Source: Rhodothermales bacterium (GTDB taxonomy: Bacteria; Bacteroidota; Rhodothermia; Rhodothermales; Bin80). From it: a stretch of DNA of 64,000 nt. The first letter of the stretch is position 1. The number at the start of each line of letters is the position of its first letter. Position numbers and translations under genes: made by a program. The notes under the pieces are model-generated. The model was not told where the DNA came from. It searched no databases and saw nothing but the letters and a program-made list of their open reading frames with translations. Shown here in pieces: positions 43,529-62,552 of the stretch. The stretch is taken from the NCBI GenBank assembly GCA_965220935.1, contig OZ244857.1, positions 3,689,844 through 3,753,843 on the forward strand. The letters are read 5' to 3'.

Positions 43529-43709
43529 ATGGATGTGCAACACGGCATTCCCTGGAGGCGCACCACCAGATCAAGAATTCTCCTGAGTCTCAATTAATTT
43601 CTCCTACTGAAAAAAAAGTCTTATTGATAGACACTTGGCGTACGATATAAGCGTTTGTACAAAATGTCATACATGTTCATTATTTACTCAAAACCTCCCA
43701 TATTCACTG

Positions 43710-43738
43710 TGTCATCAACAATAGAGTGATTGATGACA
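43710..43738 (+). other. candidate oriT inverted repeat
   Basis: tgtcatcaa-N11-ttgatgaca, a perfect 9-bp inverted repeat in the 350-bp AT-rich spacer immediately upstream of the mobC-like and relaxase genes. Confidence 0.3.
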
Positions 43739-43875
43739 GGTTAGGTGCCGGGTATATGTGATTTTCGTAGGGTTACATTTCATGTGCATTCCCATAGAGA
43801 GATGCTTCATCCATCAGCAACTCTGTTTTCAGGAAACACTTTGTTCAAAGTGTAACATCTTGAAGATAAACAAAC

Positions 43876-44220
43876 TTGATCGCTTGCGTAAGCGGAGTAA
43901 ATCATTCTCTACCAGTCGTGGACATAGAACCATCCAGCCGTCGAGTGCAAGTTGTAACTCTGCTAACGTTAGATCAGAAACAGTCACTTGAGCGTCGCGC
44001 CAAAACACTAGGCGTGAGTGTTTCTGAGTTGGTCCGAACTAGTGTGACAAATCCTAAGCGAAGATTTGAGGAATCGCTAGTCCGTGAGTGGGTGGCCGTA
44101 GGGCTACAACTTCAAAAGATTCAATCCCATGAATCTGATCAGAGAGAAATTCAACCCATTCTGGATAAGATAAAATCTCTGATCCAACAATCACTCTCAC
44201 AACCTAACGACAGATCATGA
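43876..44220 (+). CDS. ribbon-helix-helix relaxosome accessory protein (MobC-like); true start probably internal
   Basis: 'VVTLLTLDQKQSLERRAKTLGVSVSELVRTSV' fits the RHH pattern. ATGA overlap with the relaxase. Confidence 0.6.
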   Translation: MIACVSGVNHSLPVVDIEPSSRRVQVVTLLTLDQKQSLERRAKTLGVSVSELVRTSVTNPKRRFEESLVREWVAVGLQLQKIQSHESDQREIQPILDKIKSLIQQSLSQPNDRS

Positions 44221-45215
44221 TTTGCTCAAGTCAATTAACACATAGCTTTCAAAGTCTCGCACGCTATTTGAAATCACCTAAAGCTCACAGGGAAGACCGC
44301 GTCCGAGTCGCGTGGATGGAAGGTCGTAATGTCATCTCTGATGAAAACCTCATGACTGCTTCACGCGAAATGGAAATCATTGCACTGAGCAGTATTCGTG
44401 CAAAGCGTCCAACTCTGCATATGTCTATTTCTTGGGCACCAGAGGATGATCCGTCCAGAGGTCAGATGACCGAAGTCGCTGATCGGGTACTCGAGAAACT
44501 CAACCTGCAAGAGCATCAGACAATGCTGGTCGCCCATGGCGATGAACACTATGCCCATCTTCATACGATGGTGAATCGAGTACATCCGATTACACGTCAG
44601 CCTACAAGCCTTGGACTATATTATCGTGATGTTGAGGAAACACTCCGAAAAGCGGAGCGAGAAATGGGATTTCGTGAGACACCTGGCCATTATTACCAAC
44701 TTTCTGGTCAAGCCCCGCCCGACCGACGAGAGTCCTTATCTAAACGCGCACACAAAGCGACGCAATCTCGTGGAGACATTCCTTTTCAGGTTTTGGTACG
44801 TGAGGTCGCCGAGGCGGATTTTGATGCAGCCACTAGTTGGGAGGATTTACATACTCGCCTTGACAAACACGGACTGCAACTTATTCCAAGACGCAACGGA
44901 CTAGTTGTGACCGATCAGCATGAATATGCAAAATGTAGTAGTGTAGCAAAGAATGCCTCCCTACGCAAGCTTGAAGCACGATTCGGCGAATCATGGCGTA
45001 GTGCAGAAGATATTTCAATGGCTACAAAGATTCTAAAGCTCCAGAAAATTAAGGTTGCAGAATTATCACCAGTGGAAAAGCATTCAGTCGTCCAGGAGTT
45101 TATGCAGCTGGGTGTCAAAGGAGTTGACCTCAAAGCCAAGTTGGGACATGCGATCTATGACTCACTCAAGACTCTTACCCATGATGAAAGACAGCGAAGA
45201 GATTTCGGGCTCTAA
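44217..45215 (+). CDS. relaxase (MobA/VirD2-family mobilisation nuclease)
   Basis: 332 aa with N-terminal Tyr region 'SLARYLKSPKA' and histidine triad 'HGDEHYAHLHTMVNRV'. Confidence 0.85.
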   Translation: MICSSQLTHSFQSLARYLKSPKAHREDRVRVAWMEGRNVISDENLMTASREMEIIALSSIRAKRPTLHMSISWAPEDDPSRGQMTEVADRVLEKLNLQEHQTMLVAHGDEHYAHLHTMVNRVHPITRQPTSLGLYYRDVEETLRKAEREMGFRETPGHYYQLSGQAPPDRRESLSKRAHKATQSRGDIPFQVLVREVAEADFDAATSWEDLHTRLDKHGLQLIPRRNGLVVTDQHEYAKCSSVAKNASLRKLEARFGESWRSAEDISMATKILKLQKIKVAELSPVEKHSVVQEFMQLGVKGVDLKAKLGHAIYDSLKTLTHDERQRRDFGL

Positions 45216-45549
45216 ACCCAAAAGCCTTCGTGAGCGTGCAGAGAAAGCAACGTCAAAACATATTCATAAAGAGCTTTCGCCCGTCCTTGAAGGCATCAAA
45301 CGTAACCAACAGGATCTACAGTCATGTGTCCAAAAGATGCAACGACTACTAAGTCTTCAAAATGCACCGTGGAAAAATGCTGGTGCCATGTTATGGGGAA
45401 TTGTATTAGGCGTATTGATTTATGCACTTCTTCAACCAAGGATTGAGCACTCCAATCAGGCCTGCATGATAGGTAGCAGGATCATCAATGCTTGGCCATC
45501 TCTGTCAGAATCTCAGCGAAGTGTGATCAATCAAATGACTGACGAATGA
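45181..45549 (+). CDS. small hypothetical membrane protein
   Basis: Internal Met of listed ORF 45055..45549 ('MMKDSEEISG...'). Has one TM segment 'AMLWGIVLGVLIYALL'. Lies between the relaxase and trbG. Confidence 0.4.
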   Translation: MMKDSEEISGSKPKSLRERAEKATSKHIHKELSPVLEGIKRNQQDLQSCVQKMQRLLSLQNAPWKNAGAMLWGIVLGVLIYALLQPRIEHSNQACMIGSRIINAWPSLSESQRSVINQMTDE

Positions 45550-45624
45550 TCTTGGCAGAATCGTTGCACTCATTTGATAGCCTCAAGGATCAGACTGCGT
45601 TTCAGTAGAAAAACCAACAATTTC

Positions 45625-46509
45625 ATGCGGTGGATTTTATGTTTGACATTTGCACTATGTTTTTTCGCATTTGCGAAGGCTCAGCAACCCGCACCCGAAC
45701 GAGTGATTGATGTATCTGGGCCTGTTGAGTCAGCCATTGACGAGCAGGTGTCAAACTTTAATACTGATGGCCAAGCAGATATCCTTAAACAATCCGATGT
45801 GTTGATCTATCCTTATGGAATTTATCAGCCAGTATTAACCTGTACAGTTCTTCGAGCTTGTATTGTTGAACTACAGCCGCAAGAATCACTGATTAGCATT
45901 ATTGCAGGTGATGATCAGAGGTGGTTAATTGATCATACTGCAACCGGTGCGGGCGCAGAAACCGCGATCATTACGGTTAAGCCGATTGACCATAATATTA
46001 CAACAAATCTCATCATCTCCACCGATCGGCGTGTCTATCACATGACATTGGACAGCCCGCCTTATTCATCAGGGAGGAATCAGTATAACCCTCAACGCCA
46101 GTACACTCGGCATATACGGTTTTATTATCCGACTGAGCACAAATTTCCGCTGGTGCCTGTGGTCAAAGAATCAAAGAGCATCGGTGATCTTTCACTACAA
46201 ACATTGAATCATCACTACACATGGCGAGCTGAGAAGGGTTTTCCGTGGAATCCTATCGCTGTGTTTGATGATGGCGAGCGCGTTTATATTCAGATTCCTG
46301 CCAGTGCTTACACGGAGAATCAACCGCTTCTAAGCATTGGCGTTCGTGGCGCGGAGCGGGTGGCAGACTATGTTGTACGGGATGGATATTTCATTGTAGA
46401 TGGACTTTTTGAGCACGCTCGACTCATTGTCGGGGGTATCAAACGGAGAGGACTTTTTCGAAGACAGCGTCACTCGCAACGCGCCTTACATCTCTATAAA
46501 TCCAAATGA
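45625..46509 (+). CDS. trbG: TrbG/VirB9
   Basis: Signal peptide 'MRWILCLTFALCFFAFAKAQ' and 'HYTWRAEKGFPWNPIAVFDDGERVYIQIP'. Confidence 0.85.
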   Translation: MRWILCLTFALCFFAFAKAQQPAPERVIDVSGPVESAIDEQVSNFNTDGQADILKQSDVLIYPYGIYQPVLTCTVLRACIVELQPQESLISIIAGDDQRWLIDHTATGAGAETAIITVKPIDHNITTNLIISTDRRVYHMTLDSPPYSSGRNQYNPQRQYTRHIRFYYPTEHKFPLVPVVKESKSIGDLSLQTLNHHYTWRAEKGFPWNPIAVFDDGERVYIQIPASAYTENQPLLSIGVRGAERVADYVVRDGYFIVDGLFEHARLIVGGIKRRGLFRRQRHSQRALHLYKSK

Positions 46510-47462
46510 GGATTAGCTTTGAAGGGACTGAAAGTGAATCAGATGAATTCGTGGATCCCGTTGCTTCCCCTCGGTTATCTAAGCGCAACATCCTTGCTTT
46601 AGTGTTGAGCTTGGCAGGTGTCTTGCTCGTTTTATTTTTCAGTAGTCGCCGCCAATCTGGCCCCTCTATTACAGAGTATGAGTTATCCCCTCCTTCATCC
46701 GCAGATATAATTACTCTGGCGCCATTAGAACCACGCCTCCCACCGCCGAATCTCTGGAAGCCTGAAAATACAAGCCACCAAGAAGAACTTGGCGATGGGC
46801 GAAAAAACAGTTATGACCAGGCACGCCATTCACGAGGAGTTTTGCATGTAAACGCCTCAATAACACCTGAGACGACACTTGTAAATGATCCTATTCATGC
46901 GAGTGATCAACTGGTGCTTCTTGAAGGAAGCGTGATTGAAGTTGCGCTTGAAACCGGTGTTCATTCTGGTCGCCCAGGTCCAGTTCGAGCCAGGGTGATT
47001 CGGCCAGTCAGAGATTCAAAACGACTAAAAGACATATTGATTCCTCCAGGAACACAGCTGATTGGAGCGATGGAGGGGCTACTTGAAGGCGAGGAGCCAA
47101 GAGCACTCATTATATGGCATCGTATGATCTTTCCCAATGGGGAAACCAGAGATTTACCAAGCCTTCCCGCATTAGATTTCAGTGGTGAGGGAGGTCTGCA
47201 GGATAAGGTTAACCATCATCGTATCCATAGATTTGGGAGTGCGGCGATGCTAGCCTTAGTGGGGAGTGCCACATCAATCGCCACATCTGCAACGGCCAAT
47301 AGCCTCGTAGGGAATGCTCTTGCACTTGAATTATCAAGGTCGGCAACCGATCAATTAGAACAAGGCAAACGCCGCCAACCGACTCTCACACTTCGTCCTG
47401 GATACCAGTTTCTGGTGTATGTATCCAGAGACATGACCTTTACAGAATCATATTCTCAATGA
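46506..47462 (+). CDS. trbI: TrbI/VirB10
   Basis: 318 aa with an N-terminal TM segment, a Pro-rich linker and 'ARVIRPVRDSKRLKDILIPPGTQLIG'. ATGA overlaps on both sides. Confidence 0.85.
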   Translation: MRISFEGTESESDEFVDPVASPRLSKRNILALVLSLAGVLLVLFFSSRRQSGPSITEYELSPPSSADIITLAPLEPRLPPPNLWKPENTSHQEELGDGRKNSYDQARHSRGVLHVNASITPETTLVNDPIHASDQLVLLEGSVIEVALETGVHSGRPGPVRARVIRPVRDSKRLKDILIPPGTQLIGAMEGLLEGEEPRALIIWHRMIFPNGETRDLPSLPALDFSGEGGLQDKVNHHRIHRFGSAAMLALVGSATSIATSATANSLVGNALALELSRSATDQLEQGKRRQPTLTLRPGYQFLVYVSRDMTFTESYSQ

Positions 47463-49255
47463 ATGAACGCCTCTACGGTTGGGAAGCACCTCAATCCATT
47501 GGGACTCAAGGCTTGGTTCCACTCATGCTACTGTTTTTAGCGATAAGCCTTCAGGTTTCACTTGCGATTCTGACATTTATTTGGGGACCACCTGCCAAGG
47601 AGCCGTTAATTCCGTTGGAGGTTTCTAGAACTTTACTGTGGTGCATGATTGTGTCGTTAGCCCCGTGGCTATTTCGTTCATCAACGCGTGCACTGCTTGT
47701 TCCACTGATTACTGCACTGTTTGTAATCAGTCTGACACCATTACATAGCATCCATCATGTCTTTTTAGTGCTGGCCCGTTCGTTACATCATCCAGAGTTA
47801 CTCATTGTTGTGATTGGCGCACTTTCAGCGGGTGGATTGATAGGAGCGCTCCTTGTCAAGGCTATCATCATGCATTCGTCAACAAAGCTTTCACTCGCAA
47901 AAGGGTCAACGAGTTGGGGAACCGCAGAAGCCTTAAAGAAACCGACCAAGGGTCTTCTTCTTGGGAAAATGGATCAAGACTATCTTCGCTATGATGGCGA
48001 TGGGCATCTCATCACGATAGCAGCAACGCGAAGCGGGAAAGGAGTTGGAACAGTCATGCCGAATTTGCTAAACTATGAAGGTGGAATGCTAGTGACAGAC
48101 CCAAAAGGCGAAAACTACGCCGTCACCGCTGAATGGAGGCAAGATTATCTGGGGCAAGACATCGTGGCTTTAGATCCTTTTAGGCTGATGGAAGCACATG
48201 GTGGCCACATGGCATCCTTAAATCCGATGGACTTTGTCCATCTTGATGGCGATGATTATGTGGAAACGGCCATGATGTTAGCGGACATGATGATCGGGCG
48301 CGGGCATCAGGTTGAAGAGTCGCACTGGAGGATGGAGGCAAAAGGATTGCTGTTTAGCCTGATTCTTTATGTTGCCGCGGGCGATGAATTTCAAAATGAG
48401 AGAAACTTAATTACGGTTCGTCGTCTGCTAACACTGGATCGCGAGAAGTTGGATAAGACGCTGGAGATCATGAAAAACAGTGAGTTAGACCAAGTAAAAG
48501 AAGGGGCGAATCGGATCAATCAAAAGTCGGATAGAGAGCGTAGTGGAGTCTTTTCAACGGCTCAGAGCTATACGCATTTTTTGACGAGTCCGCGAATGCA
48601 AAAGGTCATGACATCCACTAGTTGTGATCTGGAGGATCTGCGTCGTGCAAAAATGACGGTGTATATCATTCTTCCCAGAGAATATCTGAGCGCATTTGCG
48701 CCGTGGCTCCGTTTGATGATCAGTTGTGGTTATTATGCATGTACCTATAATGCGGCTGATAAGCCACTGCCGCATCAGCGGGTCGTTTTTCTGTTAGATG
48801 AGTTTGCCAACCTCGGATATATGCAGAACATCAAGGAGGCTGTATCTTTGGGAGGAGGGTATGGTTTGTCAATGTGGTTAATTCTCCAGGATCTTGCACA
48901 ATTGAAGCGGGAGTATCAGAGGGAGTGGGAAAGTTTTTTGGCGAACTGCGATGTCATTCAAACATTTGCCGTGCAGGATCCATTTACAAGCGAGAAGATT
49001 ACTCGGCTTCTTGGAGAGATGTCTATTTGGCAACGTAGATTGAACAAGGGGGATGGCAGACACTTTGAGGGGATTCGTGCTGGTTATGAAGAAAGCGGTC
49101 GCCCGCTACTTAAACCAGACGAATTGCGTAGGCTCCATCCTGATCGTCAATTATTGTTCGTTCGTCCCTATCAACCTGTGGTTGCTAATAAGTTTCGTTA
49201 TTACAAGGATCCACTGACTGCTCCTCGTGCAAAGCCGAACCCATTCATTGGATAA
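47459..49255 (+). CDS. traG: TraG/VirD4 type IV coupling protein
   Basis: 598 aa with N-terminal TM helices, Walker A 'AATRSGKGVGTVMPNLL' and 'VFLLDEFANLG'. Confidence 0.9.
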   Translation: MNERLYGWEAPQSIGTQGLVPLMLLFLAISLQVSLAILTFIWGPPAKEPLIPLEVSRTLLWCMIVSLAPWLFRSSTRALLVPLITALFVISLTPLHSIHHVFLVLARSLHHPELLIVVIGALSAGGLIGALLVKAIIMHSSTKLSLAKGSTSWGTAEALKKPTKGLLLGKMDQDYLRYDGDGHLITIAATRSGKGVGTVMPNLLNYEGGMLVTDPKGENYAVTAEWRQDYLGQDIVALDPFRLMEAHGGHMASLNPMDFVHLDGDDYVETAMMLADMMIGRGHQVEESHWRMEAKGLLFSLILYVAAGDEFQNERNLITVRRLLTLDREKLDKTLEIMKNSELDQVKEGANRINQKSDRERSGVFSTAQSYTHFLTSPRMQKVMTSTSCDLEDLRRAKMTVYIILPREYLSAFAPWLRLMISCGYYACTYNAADKPLPHQRVVFLLDEFANLGYMQNIKEAVSLGGGYGLSMWLILQDLAQLKREYQREWESFLANCDVIQTFAVQDPFTSEKITRLLGEMSIWQRRLNKGDGRHFEGIRAGYEESGRPLLKPDELRRLHPDRQLLFVRPYQPVVANKFRYYKDPLTAPRAKPNPFIG

Positions 49256-49530
49256 TGGGGAATCTATCGGCCAGCTCTCAATCAACAGAAAAAGATAAGT
49301 CGGTCATTGGGAGACCAAGTTCATGTGTGCCGATTCATACACCATGAGATATGGTGATCAAAGCAAGCCCGAGGAAACTGTTTTGGGTTTCATTGAATTA
49401 AATACGAACGGGTATGACCAGTATTCCGTGCTACTCACCATCTGCCGATCCATCTTCACCGTGCGCCCAACCTTAGCGCATCTGTGGAAAGATCGTATGC
49501 AAGACCTAAACCTGTGATTTAGATAGGGGT

Positions 49531-49542
49531 TATATAATTCCC
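49531..49542 (+). promoter_or_regulatory. TATATAATTCCC motif copy 20 nt upstream of the ATPase pseudogene ATG
   Basis: Exact 12-mer in the context GGGGTTATATAATTCCCATTATTC. Confidence 0.4.
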
Positions 49543-49562
49543 ATTATTCCATCCTAATAACA

Positions 49563-50337
49563 ATGGATACATTCACCGAGTACAGATGACCTGCGGATTA
49601 CTTCCATGGGCGAAACGAGATCATAGTCCATTCGTTCATGAAATAGAGCATTACCGCGCCCGTGAAAAAGACACAATCTTTCCCATCAAAGGACCACCTG
49701 GTGCGGGAAAGGCAGCTTTATTGAGTGAACTATCAGAGCTTGCGAAAGCCATCGGGTATGCTGTGAAGGATAAGGTGAAGCCTGCCAACCTTTACGACCC
49801 ATCAAGCATGGCGTGTCATACGCTTCCCGCAAAGAGCGTGCATTTCAGTTTGGATTGAGGGTACTCCAGTGGGATCGTAAAAAGGAAATCGTTCATCACC
49901 ACCCGTTGTCAACGTCATCAAAAAAGCTGCGCATAGCAATGGACTACTCTTGGGCTTGACGAAGCACAACACATCACCGATCTAGTGTCTCCCGAACATA
50001 TTAAGGTTCGCGCCATGGACACATTGGCCGCCCTGTGATCTTACTCGCGGGTGGACTCGGAACAACAGAACTCGCGTTTGAATCTTTAGGTATCTCGCGA
50101 TTTGAGGACTCCTGCAGGGTGAGGCTTGACTCACTGGATCAGGAGGCCACATGCGCCATAGTTAAAGATCATCTTATCAACCGTTGTGGAATAGACTCCC
50201 CACCGACGACAGTCTGGATTGAGTCTCTTGCAGAGCACACGCATGGATGGACGCATCACATGATGTGCTACATTGATTCTCCAAAGGAGTATCTGGCCGT
50301 GATCAGCCGACGCAGTCTGATCTTGACAATCCATTGA
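49563..50337 (+). pseudogene. decayed paralogue of the AAA+/wHTH ATPases (opposite strand, multiple frameshifts)
   Basis: Fragments in three frames align to the 50575..51783 protein. 'PADYFHGRNEII' matches 'PAEYFHGRQEII'. 'TIFPIKGPPGAGKAALLSELSE' matches 'TTFLIQGAPGAGKTALLVKLSE'. 'ILLAGGLGTTELAFESLGISRF...HTHGWTHHMMCY' matches 'VLLAAGLGTTESAFNSLGISRF...ETHGWPQHIISY'. Confidence 0.75.
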
Positions 50338-50574
50338 GAGGGGGCGCGAGCGCCAAATATCTTATTATGGGGTCCGTGCACATGGCATATCCAAGAAGCA
50401 ACGAAGTATCAATACGGAATTATTCTCAACCTGCCTCGTGACGTGACTGTAGACAAAGAGGATGTCTTGCATGTCATTGAGAAACAGTACTCCTAAAGGA
50501 GGCTCATGAAGTTTTCACGCGGGCACGGCACAAGGAGTCCTTGACGAGAGAGCGAAATGATCATGCCTCAGTAT

Positions 50575-51783
50575 TTACCGCTCACGACTCCACTTTGAGG
50601 AGTCTTTTTCAGGCGACTCACCCTCTATCTTCGGCATTTCAATCTGTTCTCTGCCATACTCATCAATCAGCCATGTTTGCATTGAGGGAATGGGTACACC
50701 GTAGTATCCACCTTTGCGCTTATCAATGATTCCCTGCTCGAGTGCTTGTTTGAAGAGATTGTCTGCTACTTCAGGAGGATACTCCTCATTAAGAATGGCT
50801 ATAATTGATGTGCGTGTCGTAATTCCACCAATTGGAACATGGGCAAGAGATCTGGTGAGAGATTGACGTTGCTCCACATCAATATCGTGCGCGCGCGTTT
50901 CGTAATAGTTTCGCCTGAACTCATTGCCCTTTTCAAGTACAATCCGCAAGCCATCGTCGGTCATTTGACGGTGATTGGACTTAAGATAACGAACTGCGGG
51001 TTTAACATAGGAAATGATGTGTTGTGGCCATCCATGCGTCTCCTTGATAATCGCACCTATCCATGGATCAGGATTCCCCTTGGCAGCCCCTTCTTTTACG
51101 ATCCAGTCACGAATCGCCGCTCGCTCAGATTCCTTATCCAACCGCCCCAGATTTATTAAAGATTCTCCGACAAATCGTGATATTCCCAGCGAGTTAAAAG
51201 CAGACTCGGTCGTGCCCAACCCTGCCGCCAGTAGTACGACCGGTCTTCCCAATTTACCATTGTGAATTTCGTCAAGCACACCTGTAACTACCCCCCGAAC
51301 CTCATTAGGCACCACACCTTCTATCCCCAAATGCTGGGCTTCGTCTAAGACGAGCAGTAAAGGTTTTCTGCCAGACTTAAGAACTTTTTTGATGGTCTCG
51401 ACAGAATCTTTCACACTTATTTCAATGCTCCCACCCTCTGGTAGACCTGCGTTCACCTTTCCACTAAGCTTTTTTAGTAGATTCCTATCTGGAATGGATT
51501 CGCGGAGGGCCTTCACATCCCAAAGAGCGGCAGGACCAATTTCAGCAGTTTTCCATTTGTCGACCTGCGCCTTCTCAGAAAGCTTGACAAGTAACGCGGT
51601 CTTACCTGCGCCTGGTGCACCTTGTATCAGGAATGTGGTTCCCCTTTTTTTGCCGCGATAGCGTTTAAGGGCGCTGGTAAACGTGTCAATAATTTCTTGC
51701 CTTCCGTGAAAATATTCGGCTGGACCTCGATCCTCAATGAAATCAGAACTCATGATGTTTCTGGATTGATTAAATGCACGCAA
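50575..51783 (-). CDS. AAA+ (AAA_22/Orc-Cdc6-like) ATPase with C-terminal winged-helix module, copy A
   Basis: Walker A 'GAPGAGKTAL' and Walker B 'LLLVLDEAQHLG'. The C-terminal ~115 aa are only about half identical to copy B. The likely true start is ATG at 51753 ('MSSDFIEDRG'). Confidence 0.8.
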   Translation of the reverse strand: MRAFNQSRNIMSSDFIEDRGPAEYFHGRQEIIDTFTSALKRYRGKKRGTTFLIQGAPGAGKTALLVKLSEKAQVDKWKTAEIGPAALWDVKALRESIPDRNLLKKLSGKVNAGLPEGGSIEISVKDSVETIKKVLKSGRKPLLLVLDEAQHLGIEGVVPNEVRGVVTGVLDEIHNGKLGRPVVLLAAGLGTTESAFNSLGISRFVGESLINLGRLDKESERAAIRDWIVKEGAAKGNPDPWIGAIIKETHGWPQHIISYVKPAVRYLKSNHRQMTDDGLRIVLEKGNEFRRNYYETRAHDIDVEQRQSLTRSLAHVPIGGITTRTSIIAILNEEYPPEVADNLFKQALEQGIIDKRKGGYYGVPIPSMQTWLIDEYGREQIEMPKIEGESPEKDSSKWSRER

Positions 51784-51874
51784 ACGCTGGAAATTTCATC
51801 TCGGTTGATCATGTCGTAGCATTAACTGCTCACGACTCCACCACTTTGAGGAACCTTTTTCTTGGTTTGGAGAC

Positions 51875-53059
51875 TCACGCCTCGCCTTGTAGATCATTCT
51901 CTATCTCGGGCATGTCAGTCTGTTTTCTGCCATACGCCTCAATCAGCCATGTTTGCATGGATGGAATGGGAATACCGTAGTCCCCGTCGTCTCGTTCATC
52001 AATGATTCCTTTCTTAAGTGCTTTATTGAAAAGATTATCTGCGAATTGTTCATCGTATTCTTGCATTAAGACACCCATGATCTCCTTATAGGTTTTGGTC
52101 TCTCCTAATGGAATATCAACTATCGCCTTTGCTATAGATTGTCGTTGCTCCATAGGAATACCTCGGGCGCGTTGTCTATAATACTGAAGTCGGAACTCCG
52201 ACCCCTTTTCAAGTACAATCCGCAAGCCATCGTCGGTCATTTGACGGTGATTGGACTTAAGATAACGAACTGCGGGTTTAACATAGGAAATGATGTGTTG
52301 TGGCCATCCATGCGTCTCCTTGATAATCGCACCTATCCATGGATCAGGATTCCCCTTGGCAGCCCCTTCTTTTACGATCCAGTCACGAATCGCCGCTCGC
52401 TCAGATTCCTTATCCAACCGCCCCAGATTTATTAAAGATTCTCCGACAAATCGTGATATTCCCAGCGAGTTAAAAGCAGACTCGGTCGTGCCCAACCCTG
52501 CCGCCAGTAGTACGACCGGTCTTCCCAATTTACCATTGTGAATTTCGTCAAGCACACCTGTAACTACCCCCCGAACCTCATTAGGCACCACACCTTCTAT
52601 CCCCAAATGCTGGGCTTCGTCTAAGACGAGCAGTAAAGGTTTTCTGCCAGACTTAAGAACTTTTTTGATGGTCTCGACAGAATCTTTCACACTTATTTCA
52701 ATGCTCCCACCCTCTGGTAGACCTGCGTTCACCTTTCCACTAAGCTTTTTTAGTAGATTCCTATCTGGAATGGATTCGCGGAGGGCCTTCACATCCCAAA
52801 GAGCGGCAGGACCAATTTCAGCAGTTTTCCATTTGTCGACCTGCGCCTTCTCAGAAAGCTTGACAAGTAACGCGGTCTTACCTGCGCCTGGTGCACCTTG
52901 TATCAGGAATGTGGTTCCCCTTTTTTTGCCGCGATAGCGTTTAAGGGCGCTGGTAAACGTGTCAATAATTTCTTGCCTTCCGTGAAAATATTCGGCTGGA
53001 CCTCGATCCTCAATGAAATCAGAACTCATGATGTTTCTGGATTGATTAAATGCACGCAA
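51875..53059 (-). CDS. AAA+ ATPase with C-terminal winged-helix module, copy B
   Basis: The first ~285 aa are identical to copy A. The C-terminus differs ('SEFRLQYYRQRARGIPMEQRQSIAKAIVDIPLGETKTYKEIMGVLMQEY...'). Confidence 0.8.
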   Translation of the reverse strand: MRAFNQSRNIMSSDFIEDRGPAEYFHGRQEIIDTFTSALKRYRGKKRGTTFLIQGAPGAGKTALLVKLSEKAQVDKWKTAEIGPAALWDVKALRESIPDRNLLKKLSGKVNAGLPEGGSIEISVKDSVETIKKVLKSGRKPLLLVLDEAQHLGIEGVVPNEVRGVVTGVLDEIHNGKLGRPVVLLAAGLGTTESAFNSLGISRFVGESLINLGRLDKESERAAIRDWIVKEGAAKGNPDPWIGAIIKETHGWPQHIISYVKPAVRYLKSNHRQMTDDGLRIVLEKGSEFRLQYYRQRARGIPMEQRQSIAKAIVDIPLGETKTYKEIMGVLMQEYDEQFADNLFNKALKKGIIDERDDGDYGIPIPSMQTWLIEAYGRKQTDMPEIENDLQGEA

Positions 53060-53150
53060 ACGCTGGAAATTTCATCTCGGTTGATCATGTCGTAGCATTA
53101 ACTGCTCACGACTCCACCACTTTGAGGAACCTTTTTCTTGGTTTGGAGAC

Positions 53151-53345
53151 TCACGCCTCGCCTTGTAGATCATTCTCTATCTCGGGCATGTCAGTCTGTT
53201 TTCTGCCATACGCCTCAATCAGCCATGTTTGCATGGATGGAATGGGAATACCGTCGTCCCGTTCATCAATGATTCCTTTCTTAAGTACTTTATTGAAAAG
53301 ATTATCTGCGAATTGTTCATCGTATTAAGACACCCATGATATCCT
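53151..53345 (-). pseudogene. 3' remnant of a third ATPase copy (B-type C-terminus, with 9-nt and 8-nt deletions)
   Basis: Aligns to 51875-52075. Differences are 'ccgtagtccccgtcgtctcgttc' versus 'ccgtcgtcccgttc' and 'cgtattcttgcattaagac' versus 'cgtattaagac'. Similarity ends at about 53345. Confidence 0.75.
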
Positions 53346-53510
53346 TATAGGTTTTGGTCGCCCATGAGTCACGATTTTTTGATCTACAACTATTACAGCT
53401 TGATCTGTAATAAGTTCAAACTTATTTTACTGTTAAAAATCCGAAAAAGAAGTCTGATGCCCCCATTCCAATGCACCAGCCGTCAGAAAAACTAAAATGA
53501 TATAACTTTA

Positions 53511-53522
53511 GGGAATTATGTA
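53511..53522 (-). promoter_or_regulatory. near-copy of the motif (TACATAATTCCC) facing the ATPase array
   Basis: The + strand reads gggaattatgta. One mismatch to the 12-mer. Confidence 0.3.
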
Positions 53523-53541
53523 GGAAAGTGACCCACTTGTG

Positions 53542-53715
53542 TTACCGCTTCTTAATAGACTGCGGAGGCGTATTCAGCAGGATCTTGGCGAACTCATCTG
53601 GATCCATGGGGATAGATCCGTTCACTGCCTTCCAGTCCTTCGCTGGACGACCTACGCGCTTCGTAGGCTTCTGAGGAGAAGAAGGCTTCTGATTACTGGA
53701 AGGTTTTTGAGTCAT
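53542..53715 (-). CDS. small basic hypothetical protein (57 aa)
   Basis: Hand translation gives MTQKPSSNQKPSSPQKPTKRVGRPAKDWKAVNGSIPMDPDEFAKILLNTPPQSIKKR, with an AT-hook-like 'RVGRPAK'. Below the ORF-track length cut-off. Confidence 0.3.
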   Translation of the reverse strand: MTQKPSSNQKPSSPQKPTKRVGRPAKDWKAVNGSIPMDPDEFAKILLNTPPQSIKKR

Positions 53716-53925
53716 AGTTGTTGGTCTTTTTTCTTTAGTACTTGGACTTAATCTCCACGTACATCCTGGTGTAGAAAGGAAGGTTCCCTTTCGGGGGTTG
53801 GTATGTATTAGTTTCTGGTTACATTTTGTTATAGATTTAGACCAATCGTCATGGAGAAAGAGTCTTTTAGCAATGGCGACGGTATATCAATCTGGTGTCC
53901 GCATGCTAGGCAAAAGCCGTAATGC

Positions 53926-55022
53926 TCAATACGTCGGAGCTGCCAGGATCTTGAAACTCGGGCTCGCGATAATCGCTACCGAAAAGTATAGACTTGGGCT
54001 CTCCATCGTTGCTTTGGACTCTTTCTCCATGACGATTATCGGTTGTTTATGCTGTTGCAACGCCTCCCAGAGAAAGCCAACCAGTTCACGAACCACCGCG
54101 ACTTTCGGAGGTTTGCGTTGTAACGTTTGTATAAACGTGTTTGTGCTTTCTGGCGATGACTTTAGCACTGCAGTGTTTTTGCCGCTCTTGAAGTGCAACA
54201 CTGATCGCGTAGATGTATTTCCATGCTGCGCTCACCAAGACCTTTCGTGCGTGTGTGTTGCCAGTTTTGGTGATTGAACCAGTGCGGATGGTGTTTCCTG
54301 TTGAGATGGAACTAATCCAAGATGCGCCATCAGTGCCGTCCAAACCGCCGAAAGTCTCCAATCTCACAAACCAACTGCATGGCCGAGATCAGTCCAATGC
54401 CTCGGAAGCCCTGCAGAATCTGAACTGCTTGTTGAAACTTCTCGGACTCGGATGCTGTTGCGTCCCTGATGATAATCAATATCATTCAGGTGTCCGCAAA
54501 CTCGACGCTCTAACTCAATCTGATTGATCCAAGTCTTAAACTTTTTTGTCCAGTAGCTTCCAGTTGTATAACAGTGCCCGTGTGCATGCAAAAAATGAAT
54601 CACGCGCATTTTGGATTGGTGAAGACTTTTTATCAGTGCCTCACGACTGCGCAAAAGTCCTCGCACGGCTCGGAGCTGGACGAAACATTCAGTCAAAAGT
54701 CCAGATCCAAAATACTTGGACAAATTTCTGGCATCGCGCTGATCGGTTTTGATTCGATCGCCTGAGCGCTTGGGAATCGAGCAATGATGGCGCAATCCAC
54801 GCCGTGTTCGGTCAATGTGTCATAGAGCACAGTACCCGAAAAGGATGCCTCATAACAACAGCGAAAATGCCCATACTTTGAACGCGTAGATTCCACAAAC
54901 CGAGCGAGACTCTTCATTTGCTCATCACAGTAACGCTTCTCAGTCGCATCGTAAACACACGCCGAGATTGTGTCACGATGAACGTCTAATCCAACGTAAT
55001 AGCGAACAGATGTAGATGACAT
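53926..55022 (-). pseudogene. IS110-family (DEDD) transposase, at least 3 frameshifts
   Basis: N-terminus 'YYVGLDVHRDTISACVYD' (54693..55022). Middle 'IPKRSGDRIKTDQRDARNLSKYF' (54364..54795). C-terminal 'SGNTIRTGSITKTGNTHARKVLVSAAWKY' (54086..54367). Tail in 53926..54201. Each part is in a different frame. Confidence 0.8.
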
Positions 55023-55242
55023 AATAAAATGAAAGTTTGGTTACCTCAAAAAATAACACTTCTGAGAGAACCTTCCTTTCTATTATATCTTATACTCATT
55101 GAGATAGTTGGCTTCTCTTGCACTCTGTGATAGCCAGCAGTGTATGACACGGATCCCATTTTCTCGCTGGCAGCACCTACCACCTGGCCACCTTTTGTAG
55201 GCCCTATCTTGACCATCCACTTTCCATTCGCACAAAATACAG

Positions 55243-55408
55243 TGGTATCCACCGTCACAAGAAAAGTTTCGAATTTTTCATGAAAAATCTTCAACGCCTG
55301 AAATAACCGCAAAATGAACAAGCAAACTACCGGTAAGCACTTGTAAAATATAGCCCCTGCGATCCTATGCTACCCCAGAATTAGAGTTTATTGTCGGGCA
55401 CTATTTAT
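55243..55408. repeat. 165-bp repeat, right copy, in the 5' non-coding arm upstream of the IS110 transposase
   Basis: Matches the reverse complement of 2168-2332. Starts 220 nt upstream of the transposase ATG (55022). Confidence 0.85.
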
Positions 55409-55584
55409 GATTTTGGTTACATCCAGACCGAATTGGCGGGTTCGCCCATGCCTGGACGAACCATCCATCAAGACATGTGTTTATTAGGGTCCCCTGTATA
55501 ATGTTAAGTCGCCGAGAGGTGAGATTCCCCTCGGCGACTTATCTATGTTTCAAGAGTCTGGTATTTCTTGATCCGTTTAATGGA

Positions 55585-56190
55585 TCACCTGACATTCATA
55601 AAATGGCCGTAGATAGAGGCCTCGAGTTATCTTCAAGACAAACGATCCCATTTGATAGAGATACGGCCCAGAGGTAAGTCCAAGATCGGTCGGTTCTTGT
55701 TCATGATGCCACCATGCGCTGAGATGAACTTCTTGGGGCACCGCCCAATGACATCAAGAACCTCAGTTTGCACCTACGCTGGCCACGGAAAATCACACAC
55801 CAGATACATGGACATGAAAATGGATTCGGGTGATTCAGATAAACCCGAAACGCCTCATGAGCCCGCTTCATCTTCGGCCTGAACAGTGATATCACCTCTA
55901 TGGTAAATATGAAACTGCCGCCCATGCCATTGGCATCAATTGCCTAATAGGTCAACGAACCTGATGTCCACCTCAGTGGGAGTACCGCTAATGGTTCTAG
56001 TTGGAAGATCAAATAGAAATCCAAGTGGAAGGCCAAGCAGTGTCAAGGTATAGACAATCGGAACTGCGCCTGTGACCTCTGGAAGCACAAGTGTAGCAAT
56101 GGGTTGAGTGGGCATTTGATAAAGAAGGTCCACACCAATAGGCCAGACAATAATTGGCATAAACCCAAGAACAGATCGTCAGCGATAACA
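55585..56190 (-). pseudogene. 3' remnant of another adhesin gene (cadherin-like unit + frameshifted T9SS C-terminal domain)
   Basis: 'PIATLVLPEVTGAVPIVYTLTLLGLPLGFLFDLPTRTISGTPTEV', 'FTIEVIS', 'YLNHPNPF', then frame changes, ending '...ASIYGHFMNVR-stop' (stop at 55585-55587). Confidence 0.75.
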
Positions 56191-56346
56191 AAATCTGTGG
56201 TCTAAGAGGGGGGATTCAGATCGCATGATTCGTCTTTGGGGTTCAAAATCTCAAACCCCAACCCAATCGTGTTTCCTTGTCAAAATCGTCATCTATGGAC
56301 TTTTGATCACACAGCGATTAGAAGTAAAAATCATATAATAAACAAA

Positions 56347-56354
56347 TGTATAAT
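56347..56354 (+). promoter_or_regulatory. candidate extended -10 (TGTATAAT) for the fibre/Ton operon
   Basis: TGnTATAAT-like sequence 44 nt upstream of ATG 56398. GGAGGAGG lies between them. Confidence 0.3.
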
Positions 56355-56397
56355 TGTGAAATACTTTTACTTTGGAGGAGGTGTAGTTGTTGTGATC

Positions 56398-56856
56398 ATG
56401 GCATTCCTGCTTTGGAAACGCCCAACGGGGCCCGTATCGGGGCAGCTGTATCGTAGAGCAGGCCATGACTCTACCATTGTTGCACGGGCGGTGGTAAGTG
56501 ATAGTGCTTCAAGTCCGCTTGCAAGGCAGCTGGTGGTGGATCTTTTAACCAGAGATCTCTACATCAGAATCGAAAAGACAGGCCATTGCGGAGCCATCTC
56601 GGATTACTATGACAAAGTCAATCTCCGATTGCAAGCGACCAAAGATCTTCTGGAACAAGCATTCCTTGCTGCGCGCCCCGTTCAATTATATAGCGATGAG
56701 CAGACTCAATGTTTCTCCTACTCAATTACCTATCACATCCCTCTTCCTGAGCCGATGAACTGGCGGAGACATGTGATCACTAAAGTGCCGTTACAACTCA
56801 CCATCATCCACCCAATCGCAGACTTTAAATACTTCACACATCAGCAAGATGATTAA
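56398..56856 (+). CDS. hypothetical protein (first gene of operon)
   Basis: Internal Met of ORF 56236..56856, preceded by GGAGG. 8-nt overlap (ATGATTAA) with the next gene. No family recognised. Confidence 0.45.
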   Translation: MAFLLWKRPTGPVSGQLYRRAGHDSTIVARAVVSDSASSPLARQLVVDLLTRDLYIRIEKTGHCGAISDYYDKVNLRLQATKDLLEQAFLAARPVQLYSDEQTQCFSYSITYHIPLPEPMNWRRHVITKVPLQLTIIHPIADFKYFTHQQDD

Positions 56857-57517
56857 GCTACTCGCAACCATGATGCTCGGAGGCCTATGTCTTCAAACTG
56901 TAGACGCACAGCAGTTTGACCAGCTCACACGCCCCGTCGCCATTCTTTCGGATAGTACCCAGGTTTGGGAAATGCTAGATGCGCTGCTTATTCCAGCACT
57001 TGGCCCGGTCAGTCAAGCCGATGTGGTAGATGTCACAGGGAATGGGTTCGGCCCCAATGATCTCGTTGTGCTTTATCCAAGCATGGAGACCTATGAAATT
57101 GGTAGCGATGTGCCGCAAGCTCTATTAGATGCAATGAAATCATGGGAAATCTCTGCCGATTACCGACTAGATGCACTACGAGCAGAAAGAACCCGGATTG
57201 CCTCGGATGCGCATGCCAATCAGGACGCGCGGGCCGCCTTGACATCCGATGTGCTCGGTGTGGTATCCCGATACTACCAAGGAGATCATTTTGATATGCG
57301 GATGTCGCAGGATTTTGAAGGTGTACGCTTAGAAATCTGGAATTATGATCCCAGCGCATTACAGTATAGAGGGTCAATCCAATCTGCCAGTCCAGATACA
57401 CTCTGGCAGGCCTTCCGATTTTCAAGCCCCGCGGTAGTGATGGCCTTTAAGGATGTCTCTGACTGCGTTGAAACCTACTCTGAAAATGGACTTGTTCAAA
57501 CACGCCCATGTCAATGA
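56849..57517 (+). CDS. secreted hypothetical protein
   Basis: Signal peptide 'MIKLLATMMLGGLCLQTVDAQ'. 222 aa. No family recognised. Confidence 0.55.
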   Translation: MIKLLATMMLGGLCLQTVDAQQFDQLTRPVAILSDSTQVWEMLDALLIPALGPVSQADVVDVTGNGFGPNDLVVLYPSMETYEIGSDVPQALLDAMKSWEISADYRLDALRAERTRIASDAHANQDARAALTSDVLGVVSRYYQGDHFDMRMSQDFEGVRLEIWNYDPSALQYRGSIQSASPDTLWQAFRFSSPAVVMAFKDVSDCVETYSENGLVQTRPCQ

Positions 57518-57630
57518 ACCCACCAATTAGGTGCAATCGGATATCCTTTCATAGATGCAAAATTGACCATTTTCAAAGATGTATGACGGGTGATTTCATT
57601 CACATTCATCATAACCGAATCAACACACTA

Positions 57631-58176
57631 ATGAGATATACACTACTGTTCATTCTTTTTCATTTTTGGTCTGTATTTCCCACAGTCGGGCAATCCGTAT
57701 CGGTCAGTGCGTCAATTACGCTGACGAGTCCAGCGCCTACATGCTCATTTACCCGAGATTCCCACCTCTCTTTCGGGAGCGTGGAAAAACCGAGTAGTGG
57801 AACAGGGTCTGTGGCTGTCAACGCGCAGACGGGTGCGCGAACGATCAGTGGAGTGTCGGGAGGCGGAGGGACGACGGTAGGTCAGCTACGCTTGACGGGA
57901 TCCAATGTAGCCAACTACTCGGTATCAAGGTCATTTCCTTCAGATCTGACACAATCCACTGATGCGTTGACTTTCAGTGGTACATGGTCTCAATCTACGA
58001 GCCCCACATCGGGTTATTCCTCCATCAGTGGCACTTCGTACAGTGGTACAGCGAGTGGTGCAGGCACTTCATTTTCTCGATATTTTCGATTTGGTGGAAC
58101 TGTCAGTGGCATAGATCTCTCCGACCAAAATGGAACGTATACAGGGACGATCACCGCCACAGGGACATGCAGTTAA
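57631..58176 (+). CDS. SCPU/DUF4402-like secreted fibre subunit 1
   Basis: Signal peptide 'MRYTLLFILFHFWSVFPTVGQS', 'TCSFTRDSHLSFGSV' and C-terminal 'FRFGGTVSGIDLSDQNGTYTGTITATGTCS'. This is the pattern of spore-coat-U/Csu-type pilins. Confidence 0.6.
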   Translation: MRYTLLFILFHFWSVFPTVGQSVSVSASITLTSPAPTCSFTRDSHLSFGSVEKPSSGTGSVAVNAQTGARTISGVSGGGGTTVGQLRLTGSNVANYSVSRSFPSDLTQSTDALTFSGTWSQSTSPTSGYSSISGTSYSGTASGAGTSFSRYFRFGGTVSGIDLSDQNGTYTGTITATGTCS

Positions 58177-58689
58177 ATGAGGTTTAGTCTCATCGTCATT
58201 GTTTGTTGTAATGCTGTCCATGCACAGACCAGTAGCACAATGCAGATTCAACTAGAAGTCCTTCCAAGGGCTCTATCGGTGAGCGTGAGTAGCGCTCATC
58301 TAGATTTTGCAGAACAGCGTGCAGATGCTGGATCTGTAACGCTTGATCCTACAAAAGGACTAACCAATCAAAAAGCTGCAGGGGCTCATGCAGTTGGAGA
58401 AGTGATTGTGGAAGGGCCGGCCAGATCCAAATTTCTGGTCAGCCTTGACCATACAGCGTCTCTCAAACAAATAGGTGGAGATTACGAAGTTGACTATACC
58501 CCGACTTGGGCTCAGACGCGTGGATGTGGGCTTAGAGATTTTGTTGAGTCTACAAGCATTCAAGGAGCGATGGGAACTTTGGGAGAGGATGGGTGCGCGA
58601 CGCTTCGGTTTGGGGGGACGGTACATCTTGTAGGAACCCCCCAAGGACGCTATGCTGGACAGCTTGCCGTTCGCATTATGGCTTTATGA
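58177..58689 (+). CDS. SCPU/DUF4402-like secreted fibre subunit 2
   Basis: Signal peptide, 'HLDFAEQRADAGSVTL', 'GEVIVEGPARSKFLVSL' and C-terminal 'LRFGGTVHLVGTPQGRYAGQLAVRIMAL'. Confidence 0.6.
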   Translation: MRFSLIVIVCCNAVHAQTSSTMQIQLEVLPRALSVSVSSAHLDFAEQRADAGSVTLDPTKGLTNQKAAGAHAVGEVIVEGPARSKFLVSLDHTASLKQIGGDYEVDYTPTWAQTRGCGLRDFVESTSIQGAMGTLGEDGCATLRFGGTVHLVGTPQGRYAGQLAVRIMAL

Positions 58690-59465
58690 CAAGATACAGG
58701 ATTATTTTTCTGATTGCCATTGCATGGGTGGCCAAAAAGGCTGATGCGCAAGCCTCATTGAGTGTCACGCCCGCATATGTGGTGACCACCGATGAGATCC
58801 CTTTTGGGTCATTTGTTCTGTCCAATCAAGGGACAGAGCCTGTTGAAATAACAATTAGTGCACACTATGGTGTGATTGCATCAACCGATTCTACGACTGA
58901 AGTTGTCCTTGGCCAAGCAGGACAACTTGGGGATCTATCACCATTTTTAACCTTTTTCCCTCACCGATGTATCCTCTCAGCACAGAGTGAGCAAACCGTC
59001 CGCTACCGAATTCGGCCACCACCTGAGGGAGGATATATCACGCTCATGCATTTTGCAATGCGTGAGCGTGGGGCAACAGTAGACGGTCAGATTCCCGAAG
59101 TTGCCAGTGGGCTTAGCATCGTGTATAACTTGGTCGCTCCAGTGACTTATCTTCAAGGGCGGGGCATTCCTGTTCTTACAGCTCACCCCTTAAACCTCCG
59201 CGTGCAGGAACTCCTTCTATTGTTAGAAAATCACAGCCGTTGGCCCTTTTTTGGTGGGATACGCGTGATTCAAGGTGAGCAGCAACTTGGAAGAGCAGAA
59301 GCAGCGGTCTATACCAAACGTCTCATTCGAATTCCAGTATCCAAAATCCTAAGTGATCAGGCCGTTCGTTTAGAGTTTGACACGGATTATACAGGACTTA
59401 AACGGTTGATCCGAAGTCAATTGGGGATACCAGATCCGGTCTATCTGACCGAGTCTAATGATTAA
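58686..59465 (+). CDS. PapD-like periplasmic pilus chaperone (putative)
   Basis: Signal peptide 'MTRYRIIFLIAIAWVAKKADAQ', then 'SLSVTPAYVV...FVLSNQGTEPVEITISA...FFPHRCILSAQSEQTVRYRI' (chaperone N-domain pattern). ATGA overlap upstream. Confidence 0.6.
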   Translation: MTRYRIIFLIAIAWVAKKADAQASLSVTPAYVVTTDEIPFGSFVLSNQGTEPVEITISAHYGVIASTDSTTEVVLGQAGQLGDLSPFLTFFPHRCILSAQSEQTVRYRIRPPPEGGYITLMHFAMRERGATVDGQIPEVASGLSIVYNLVAPVTYLQGRGIPVLTAHPLNLRVQELLLLLENHSRWPFFGGIRVIQGEQQLGRAEAAVYTKRLIRIPVSKILSDQAVRLEFDTDYTGLKRLIRSQLGIPDPVYLTESND

Positions 59466-61695: not shown

Positions 61696-62552
61696 ATCAG
61701 CTCAAGTGGTGTTTCTTAATGATTTTATGCGGATCTGCAGGTGACTCTGAGGCGCAGCTCAGAGTTCATGGTACACTCTCATTGAATGGGATGCCTGCGC
61801 GGATTGAATCAGTATTTACGCCTGAGATGGGGGCTTGGTATGAGGCGATTGTTCAGGGGCATGAACTCAGGATGGGATCAAAGGCCATTAAGTGGGCGCC
61901 GAGCATTTCGTGTCAAGGTCAACATCCAACCAATGGTGCGCAGGTGTGTCGGGTACAGGCAGGTCGGAATCTCATTTGGTACATTTACGGGGCCACCACT
62001 GAGCAGGCAGATCCAGGGATCTACCATGGTCATGCGCGCCTGACTGTGCGGGGCGCAGGTCACCTCTATACGACATCTATCCCGGTCAGATTGAGCGTGA
62101 GGGCTATAGAGCCTCACTGTGAAATCAGTCAATCGGGAGCATTAGACTTTGGCGAGGCGCAGGCAAACACAACTGGATTGGTTTCGCTTCATTCGGTGAC
62201 GGGGCAACGCTCTGCACATGGGTATGCACTTCAAAAAACAACATCTACACGGCATCGTTTCGCGCGTTTGACTCTGAGTACCAGCGCTACGTCAGTGATG
62301 GTATCCATTGACGCACCTTCGGTGTTACGATCTGAGGGGAGTATCGTAGGATTTATGAGTCAACTCTCTTATAAATCTGCCTTATCGCCTACGTATCGCC
62401 CATTGATTGAGGGTTCTGGAAGCCGCCGAATTCAGTCAGATGGGCCAAGGCTCTTCTTTCGTCTTGGGGGGATCGTTCAGACCTATGTAACGAGTTTAGA
62501 AGCTGAGTATCAAGGAAACATTTCATTCACAATTTTATGCGAACAATCATGA
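61692..62552 (+). CDS. two-domain tip/adhesin-like subunit (CsuE-like position)
   Basis: 286 aa with a signal peptide. The second half has 'LDFGEAQANTTGLVSL' and 'FFRLGGIVQTYVTSLEAEYQGNISFTI', the same pattern as the subunits. ATGA overlap with the usher gene. Confidence 0.45.
   Translation: MNQLKWCFLMILCGSAGDSEAQLRVHGTLSLNGMPARIESVFTPEMGAWYEAIVQGHELRMGSKAIKWAPSISCQGQHPTNGAQVCRVQAGRNLIWYIYGATTEQADPGIYHGHARLTVRGAGHLYTTSIPVRLSVRAIEPHCEISQSGALDFGEAQANTTGLVSLHSVTGQRSAHGYALQKTTSTRHRFARLTLSTSATSVMVSIDAPSVLRSEGSIVGFMSQLSYKSALSPTYRPLIEGSGSRRIQSDGPRLFFRLGGIVQTYVTSLEAEYQGNISFTILCEQS

Follow-up and report, generated by a model that had tools for sequence, protein, structure and literature searches.

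A chimeric gene in a homogenized tandem array of a multicopy, mosaic ATPase family in a Rhodothermales bacterium

Clusters of plant NLR genes evolve by unequal crossing-over and gene conversion, yielding chimeric genes, and some archaea carry many paralogues of Orc1/Cdc6. These modes of recombination are textbook matter. What is unusual in the locus described here is the substrate, a stand-alone AAA_16/STAND-like ATPase with a winged helix that is present in about 50 intact copies per genome and whose discrete variable cassettes have been reshuffled. The locus lies in a stretch of 64,000 nucleotides (nt) from a Rhodothermales bacterium (GenBank assembly GCA_965220935.1, contig OZ244857.1, positions 3,689,844 to 3,753,843; we call the whole stretch that was analyzed the window). 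Three genes of a multicopy ATPase family stand there in tandem: C, of which a remnant is left, then B and A. Genes A and B share a perfect repeat, the end of B belongs with C, and comparison with a sister strain indicates that A and B were made identical after the two strains had separated.

All four elements listed in an initial annotation of the window (the two-copy array, the B-type 3′ remnant and an inverted paralogue) were present when we combined the list of open reading frames (ORFs), a self-comparison and tblastn searches. Some of the limits have changed. The self-comparison, at an offset of 1276, confirmed 1276 bp as the period of what had been called a perfect 1276-bp repeat, but exact identity spans only 1,052 bp (50927-51978 = 52203-53254). 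The third unit, first placed at 53151-53345, is indeed a B-type 3′ fragment with 8-nt and 9-nt deletions but extends to ~53361, and the inverted, frameshifted paralogue, first placed at 49563..50337, extends to ~50551 and is nearly full length. The longest ORFs of A and B (50575-51783 and 51875-53059, both on the minus strand) begin upstream of the conserved start. Alignment of the upstream regions of 20 paralogues places that start at an ATG at 51753 (A) and 53029 (B), from which both proteins begin MSSDFIEDRG, and database gene calls of 392 and 384 amino acids (aa) match these ATG starts. A TTG at 51783, 30 nt upstream of the ATG of A, was rejected as a start on the basis of the same alignment and gene calls. 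Positions given below as gene nt, among them the breakpoint at nt 857, are counted on the minus strand from the start of the longest ORF. The parts of the array and the adjoining pseudogene are as follows.

50575-51753, minus strand: gene A, 392 aa, an AAA_16-type P-loop ATPase with a lid and a winged helix bearing the A-type C-terminal cassette (basis: ORF, Pfam, AlphaFold2 [AF2] model, conserved ATG).
51875-53029, minus strand: gene B, 384 aa, chimeric, with an A-type 5′ part joined to a B-type C-terminal cassette (basis: triplet test).
50927-51978, minus strand: perfect repeat copy 1, running from the final 104 nt of B through the spacer and into the A ORF as far as nt 857.
52203-53254, minus strand: perfect repeat copy 2, running from the final 104 nt of the upstream gene fragment through the spacer and into the B ORF as far as nt 857.
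50575-50926, minus strand: A-type C-terminal cassette (linker and winged helix), with relatives in g2205027, g2466985, g2468269 and g2243414 (basis: cassette alignment, nearest-paralogue painting).
51875-52202, minus strand: B-type C-terminal cassette, 98-100% identical to that of g2203723 (at 2.20 Mb) and 88-97% identical to that of g2166023.
53151 to ~53361, minus strand: 5′-truncated 3′ remnant of gene C with a B-type cassette (basis: alignments; the sister strain has the same structure).
49563 to ~50551, plus strand: inverted near-full-length pseudogene of another subfamily, convergent with gene A (basis: tblastn with family proteins).

Genes A and B are ~90% identical overall, and a perfect run of 857 nt within such genes cannot be due to chance. 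Past nt 857, they are only 63.7% identical in nucleotides and 50.5% identical in amino acids, which agrees with the earlier description of the last ~115 aa as about half identical. In a triplet test of A, B and the paralogue g2203723, 144 informative sites to the left of nt 857 joined A with B and 0 joined B with g2203723, whereas to the right of nt 857, 117 sites joined B with g2203723 and 2 joined A with B (Fisher P = 4.8e-74). B and g2203723 are 98-100% identical over nt 772-1170 and remain alike for ~50 nt past the stop codon. B is cleanly chimeric: its 5′ part is of the A type, and its 3′ part is typical of C and of a paralogue at a distance of 1.5 Mb. Between the A-type and B-type tails, synonymous divergence (dS) is saturated at ~1.5 and nonsynonymous divergence (dN) is 0.35, giving a dN/dS of ~0.23; they are old alleles, not fast-drifting copies. 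Gene conversion or cassette exchange, as the initial annotation had proposed, thus accounts for a gene whose head equals that of A and whose tail is that of a paralogue 1.5 Mb off, and the ordinary orthologous drift it had named as the alternative does not.

The C remnant has the B-type 3′ end and the identical spacer. In addition to its 8-nt and 9-nt deletions, each bordered by 3 to 4 nt of microhomology, it carries three substitutions, at least two of them derived. The spacers at 51784-51874 and 53060-53150, which follow the B-type stop codon, still read the usual C-terminal tail of the family (..QEK..SKWSRE..), so that B-type genes end early, at a premature TGA, relative to A-type genes. 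The inverted pseudogene is most closely related to g349289 (~44% aa identity over residues 1-346) and is spread over three frames with several frameshifts and stops.

Two further assemblies cover the array. In the first, ERZ25072152, from another European Nucleotide Archive (ENA) analysis, a contig of 1.67 Mb at 12x coverage is 100.000% identical to the window over 43001-61753 (18,753 bp), the whole array included. The second, ERZ25070844, is a 4,148,270-bp circular contig at 1281x from a sister strain that is ~99.1% identical across the region and whose array agrees with that of the window in layout (C remnant, B and A), in breakpoints and in the C-remnant deletions. The two 1,052-bp units of the sister strain differ at 16 sites and those of the window at 0, and the 16 differences in 1,052 sites mean that two physical copies exist. 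Against the window tract, sister B shows 7 differences and sister A 13, of which 8 cluster in gene nt 255-433. This cluster appears as a patch of 8 substitutions within 179 bp of gene A (sister strain L021, 11501-11679; window 51351-51529). No paralogue in the window genome matches more than 3 of the 8 sites, so that none could have been the donor; the patch is either a remnant of ancestral sequence specific to A or the product of ectopic conversion from a copy that only the sister strain has.

Outside the array, window and sister strain diverge by 0.62%. Without conversion, ~6.5 differences between A and B would be expected even if the two had been identical at the split, and 0 were seen (P = 0.0015). 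At gene nt 81 and 197, A and B of the window share a state unlike that of both sister copies and of the closest paralogue, g2166023, so that a change of single origin must have been copied into the other gene. At nt 370, 402 and 433, an unusual state is found in both window copies and in sister B and the family-common state in sister A, a pattern that favors conversion of B into A. One end of the perfect tract lies at nt 857, just after the conserved block CGGATTGTACTTGAAAAGGG (which codes LRIVLEKG), where homology collapses, and the other lies at the 9-nt indel of the C remnant; the tract therefore fills the whole uninterrupted block of homology. These are the marks of gene conversion: paralogues within a genome closer to each other than orthologues between strains, derived states common to both copies and, as described below for the family, mosaic tracts with diverged flanks that include non-adjacent loci. 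Because the homogenization postdates the ~0.6% strain split, exchange is ongoing, and the array provides a dated example of it.

We propose that the array arose in two steps. Before the strains split, an unequal crossover between the neighboring paralogues C and A, or a tandem duplication of 1,276 bp to the same effect, would have yielded C, a hybrid A5′::C3′ gene (B) and A, a product of the anti-Lepore type, and C would afterwards have lost its 5′ end and decayed. After the split, and in the window strain only, gene conversion would have rehomogenized the whole uninterrupted homology block, most likely by copying B into A.

The array is a small part of a large family. Searched against its own genome of 4.08 Mb, protein A gave 89 matches, and we counted there 49 near-full-length family genes at 37 loci of one chromosome, with arrays of 2 to 4 genes separated by gaps of 24 to 301 nt, and ~30-40 fragments or pseudogenes. 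Copies with an overall identity of 81-94%, in some cases at distances of up to 2 Mb, share exact tracts of 927, 782, 738 and 640 nt; for the three longest tracts the overall identity is 88-94%. When the genes were compared in four segments, 35 pairs reached at least 95% identity in one segment, and 27 of these fell below 75% in another. Mosaicism is pervasive across the family. Alternative C-terminal cassettes exist as discrete winged-helix types: the A-type, the B-type (B, g2203723 and g2166023), a third type (g2167244, g2168498 and g80241) and a fourth (g3610151 and g3839697). Exchanges end at scattered points along the gene, only some of them near nt 770-890, so that local nucleotide homology, and not a fixed module boundary, sets what is exchanged. 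The same homologous recombination, operating between tandem and distant copies, would thereby have produced a limited set of N-terminal, V1, middle and winged-helix variants in many combinations.

V1 is one of three variable blocks (residues 91-135, V1; 151-170, V2; 305-345, V3), which are set among conserved blocks comprising Walker A, Walker B, LLAAGLGTT, GWPQH and IPSMQTWL. The dN/dS ratio is ~0.9 in V1, ~0.9 in V2 and 0.58 in V3 and lies between 0.24 and 0.38 elsewhere.

Two observations on other arrays bear on the same theme. The paralogue g2203723 belongs to a two-gene array at 2.20 Mb (G000:C1:2203723-2206265) in which it is the B-type gene and g2205027 the A-type gene, the same order of tail types as B followed by A, and the spacer of that array is similar for ~50 nt beyond the stop codon; this suggests segmental duplication of the array or the exchange of whole blocks between the two loci. 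Longer arrays, of at least four and at least seven units, occur in another species of the genus (G007:C1:526134-531991 and 1346166-1358100), with a period of ~1.5-1.6 kb and match scores that recur from unit to unit, suggesting that homogenized arrays are common in the genus.

The family was found in 8/8 sampled genomes of the window's own bacterial family, in 0/112 genomes from 26 other families of the order and in 0/298 sampled genomes from the rest of the phylum. In a set of 1.84 billion representative proteins, only 180 relatives were found at E <= 1e-30. The best 150 of these 180 are 154-500 aa long and match end to end, without a fused effector or sensor domain. The named relatives are all from Rhodothermales, Rhodothermaceae or Bacteroidetes metagenome-assembled genomes, several with isolate names that we take to be sponge or coral derived. 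A literature search found no published description of this ATPase family. It is lineage restricted and uncharacterized; the mechanism by which it recombines is itself already well known.

Profile searches identify the proteins as P-loop ATPases and little more. Pfam AAA_16 (PF13191) matched A at 39.6 bits and B at 39.5 (E = 1e-9; cutoff, 32.6), and AAA_22 matched at 30.4 against a cutoff of 27. ATPase_2/Arch_ATPase (PF01637), at 15.1 bits (E = 0.021; cutoff, 33.2), fell short, as did the Orc1/Cdc6 model TIGR02928 (25.6 bits; cutoff, 181.3); NACHT, nSTAND (nSTAND1) and TniB gave weak subthreshold matches, and no further Pfam domain was found in either protein. A profile search of the PDB reached Cdc6 only at E = 4e-4 and in the P-loop region. 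The best match in PADLOC-DB 2.0, mad8 (E = 2e-4), covers only 29 P-loop residues, NCBIfam gave nothing past the P-loop, and PHROGs gave no match. Walker A reads GAPGAGKT, Walker B reads LLVLDE and a G-W-P motif in the lid is invariant in 53 sequences; it may be the equivalent of the GxP motif of STAND proteins.

An AF2 model built from 53 sequences (predicted local distance difference test score, 82; predicted template-modeling [TM] score, 0.77) contains, in 392-aa numbering, a P-loop alpha/beta core, lid helices (207-259), a further helix (266-288) and a winged helix (293-366), the last as the initial annotation had suspected from the sequence of the C-terminal part. V1, a partly disordered and basic stretch, falls between strand 2 and Walker B. 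The A/B breakpoint falls at residue 275/276, inside helix 266-288 and thus near the boundary between lid and winged helix without coinciding with it; together with the scatter of endpoints elsewhere in the family, this lends no support to the suggestion that the breakpoint marks a special domain boundary. Foldseek placed 2qen (PABY2304) first (E = 2e-11; TM score, 0.56/0.61 over 395 columns), followed by Cdc6/Orc1, NB-ARC and Apaf-1.

On this basis, each protein may be a minimal STAND/Orc1-Cdc6-like nucleotide switch, with a P-loop core, a lid bearing the invariant GWP and a winged helix. The hypervariable surfaces at 91-135, 151-170 and 305-345 would recognize different ligands or DNA sites, with recombination supplying new combinations. 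Taken as a single best explanation, the history of the array, family-wide exchange and function as a recognition switch together seem to us likely to be correct. The functional part, a nucleotide-switch recognition protein with recombination-diversified surfaces, we put forward only tentatively. A bolder version, in our view rather doubtful, is that the family is the bacterial counterpart of a plant NLR cluster cut down to the bare switch: ~50 minimal STAND-like receptors per genome in which V1, V2 and the winged-helix helices would recognize phage, mobile-element or host-derived ligands, gene conversion would yield new combinations, and output would be through oligomerization or a shared effector encoded elsewhere. 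If the variable surfaces do set specificity, the family would represent a recombination-diversified recognition family in a bacterial symbiont lineage.

Several points weigh against this account. With regard to function, neither an effector domain nor a conserved partner gene nor a match to a known defense family was found in Pfam, at the 37 loci, in PADLOC or in PHROGs, and the winged-helix part is mildly acidic (median pI, 6.5), so that DNA binding is not assured. With regard to history, the evidence on assembly behavior and copy number comes from three assemblies, a single sister strain underlies both the proposed direction of conversion and the age assigned to the first duplication, and part of the 16 differences between the sister copies could reflect ectopic conversion specific to that strain, not ancestral divergence. 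The tail of B, moreover, could derive from g2203723 by ectopic conversion instead of from gene C.

The main rival to a recognition-switch function is that the mosaicism is real but neutral, a birth-and-death family in a genome rich in insertion sequences (IS) recombining as any repeats would, with the variable segments under relaxed constraint. The dN/dS of ~0.9 in V1 and V2 fits relaxation as well as it fits diversifying selection, and the ~30-40 fragments or pseudogenes, the scattered rather than modular endpoints and the lack of partner genes all sit comfortably with such a history. It fits less well with the intact ORFs of most copies and the dN/dS of 0.24-0.38 over the core and winged-helix framework, with cassettes that are discrete old types of saturated dS, each under purifying selection, and with the retention of the family in all eight genomes sampled from its bacterial family. 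We regard neutral mosaicism as possible, if unlikely.

A very recent tandem duplication in the window strain alone, with no gene conversion, would explain the 0 differences between copies. We consider it very improbable, given that the array of the sister strain already matches that of the window in its three units, its breakpoints and its C deletions, so that the duplication predates the split and the ~6.5 expected differences between the window copies are still missing. No more credible is programmed cassette switching of the shufflon, pilE/pilS or diversity-generating retroelement type by a dedicated recombinase or reverse transcriptase, for which the joining of discrete cassette types to different cores might speak. 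The junctions have no inverted repeats or recombinase sites (the sole inverted match is the pseudogene), and no recombinase or reverse transcriptase recurs beside the 37 loci, although reverse transcriptases were not searched for specifically. Nor is there any sign of a single expression site with silent cassettes, since all copies look expressible, and the endpoints vary.

The initial annotation had also tied the array to the conjugative backbone beside it, with a replication-initiator or incompatibility role in mind. The transfer genes and an IS element flank the array as follows.

44217-49255, plus strand: block of relaxase, VirB9/CagX, VirB10/TrbI and TraG/VirD4 genes (basis: Pfam).
53762-55091, minus strand: degenerate IS110-family element, 400 bp past the truncated end of the array, with a broken reading frame.

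That the ATPases are initiator, incompatibility or exclusion determinants of the adjoining conjugative element, with swapped specificity domains, would suit the Orc1/Cdc6-like fold with its C-terminal winged helix and the position of the array 1.3 kb past traG. It is nevertheless highly unlikely. The relaxase, VirB9, VirB10 and TraG genes are each present in single copy, whereas the 49 near-full-length ATPase genes occupy 37 chromosomal loci; no iteron-like repeats lie near the array, and the score against TIGR02928 was 25.6 bits where 181 is needed. The four-gene block is retained at ~70% aa identity in five congeneric species, which marks it as a long-resident module and not a recent integrative and conjugative element. 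In none of the five (0/5) does an ATPase occupy the window's position beside the transfer block; a family ATPase lies downstream of traG in one of them, on the other strand, and upstream of the relaxase gene in another. The adjacency to traG is therefore incidental, and neither the link to the conjugative backbone nor the initiator or incompatibility role is supported. Least probable of all is that the perfect repeat is an assembly duplication or consensus artifact, for although a perfect repeat of 1 kb is a well-known cause for suspicion in a genome derived from a metagenome and this had been offered as the observation that would undo the earlier reading, the same sequence recurs in the assembly from another ENA analysis, the 1281x circular contig of the sister strain has the three-unit layout with distinguishable copies, and the flanking cassettes differ and so anchor each unit in unique sequence: the 1,052-bp repeat is real.

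Truncation of gene C by an IS was considered, but the IS110 copy begins 400 bp beyond the break. The IS110 family has more than 25 copies in the genome at 80-98% identity, and the window copy is shorter than the copies of 1437-1493 bp. When ORFs within 4 kb of the 37 loci were clustered, the only recurrent partners were IS transposases (ISL3, IS4-type and IS605 TnpB) and giant fn3 proteins; one ORF family, at 3 loci, presumably encodes a methyltransferase. A scan for sigma-70 promoters and terminators found fewer promoter-like sites than in shuffled sequence, the promoter model being ill suited to Bacteroidota.

Elsewhere in the window, the type IV secretion and transfer genes prove to be divided between two places: a VirB4/TraG-P-loop ATPase gene at 12859-15294 lies ~30 kb from the relaxase-VirB9-VirB10-VirD4 block, with a photolyase gene and giant surface-protein genes in between. 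Giant repeat-protein genes at 2954-10588 (minus strand) and 38033-43528 (plus strand; fn3 and He_PIG repeats) have a GC content of 57-60% against a background of ~46%, and a third giant gene at 18014-21544 (plus strand), with He_PIG, Calx-beta and SprB domains, is close to background GC. Outside the window, paralogous fn3 giants adjoin several ATPase loci of the genome. About nine codirectional, overlapping ORFs form a run at 56236-63926 (plus strand) that has no Pfam match except a weak one to DUF4402 and is syntenic in both other assemblies, and the sister strain has an extra ISAZ013-type transposase gene between this run and the array. A search of the five other species with seven ORFs from the run placed none of them within 8-10 kb of traG.

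Among described proteins, the archaeal Walker-type ATPase PABY2304 (2qen), also of uncharacterized function, is alike in its stand-alone P-loop core, lid and C-terminal winged helix, its length of ~350-400 aa and an N-terminal F-x-G-R motif before Walker A. It differs in being only 13% identical, and the window family is bacterial, confined to one Rhodothermales family and present in tens of recombining copies. Archaeal Orc1/Cdc6 proteins (1fnn, 1w5t, 2qby and 2v1u) share the architecture of AAA+ core, lid and winged helix, and V1, to judge from predicted secondary structure, appears to sit where initiators carry a DNA-contacting insert, between strand 2 and Walker B. In contrast to the initiators, the window family has a lid with the STAND-typical GWP and no initiator sensor 2, and its ~50 copies have no link to an origin. 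The module of nucleotide-binding, helical and winged-helix domains of STAND NTPases (NB-ARC, Apaf-1 and plant NLRs; bacterial Avs and NACHT) matches as well (8bv0, 3shf and 7xe0), and the family has the parts of a STAND nucleotide-oligomerization domain (NOD) module, namely a P-loop domain with Walker A and B, lid helices with GWP and a winged helix. Unlike STAND NTPases, it carries neither sensor repeats (TPR, WD40 or LRR) nor an effector, and its close relatives are ~360-470 aa long.

In their genetics, the window genes resemble plant NLR clusters, being likewise tandem and likewise marked by unequal crossing-over, gene conversion and chimeras. They resemble tufA/tufB-type concerted evolution in that paralogues within a genome are closer than orthologues between strains and share derived substitutions, and they resemble the Lepore and anti-Lepore globin genes in having a hybrid gene from the unequal crossover of tandem paralogues. 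The difference from tufA/tufB and the globins is that the partners here belong to a family of ~50 members, in which ectopic exchange between distant loci makes combinatorial mosaics.

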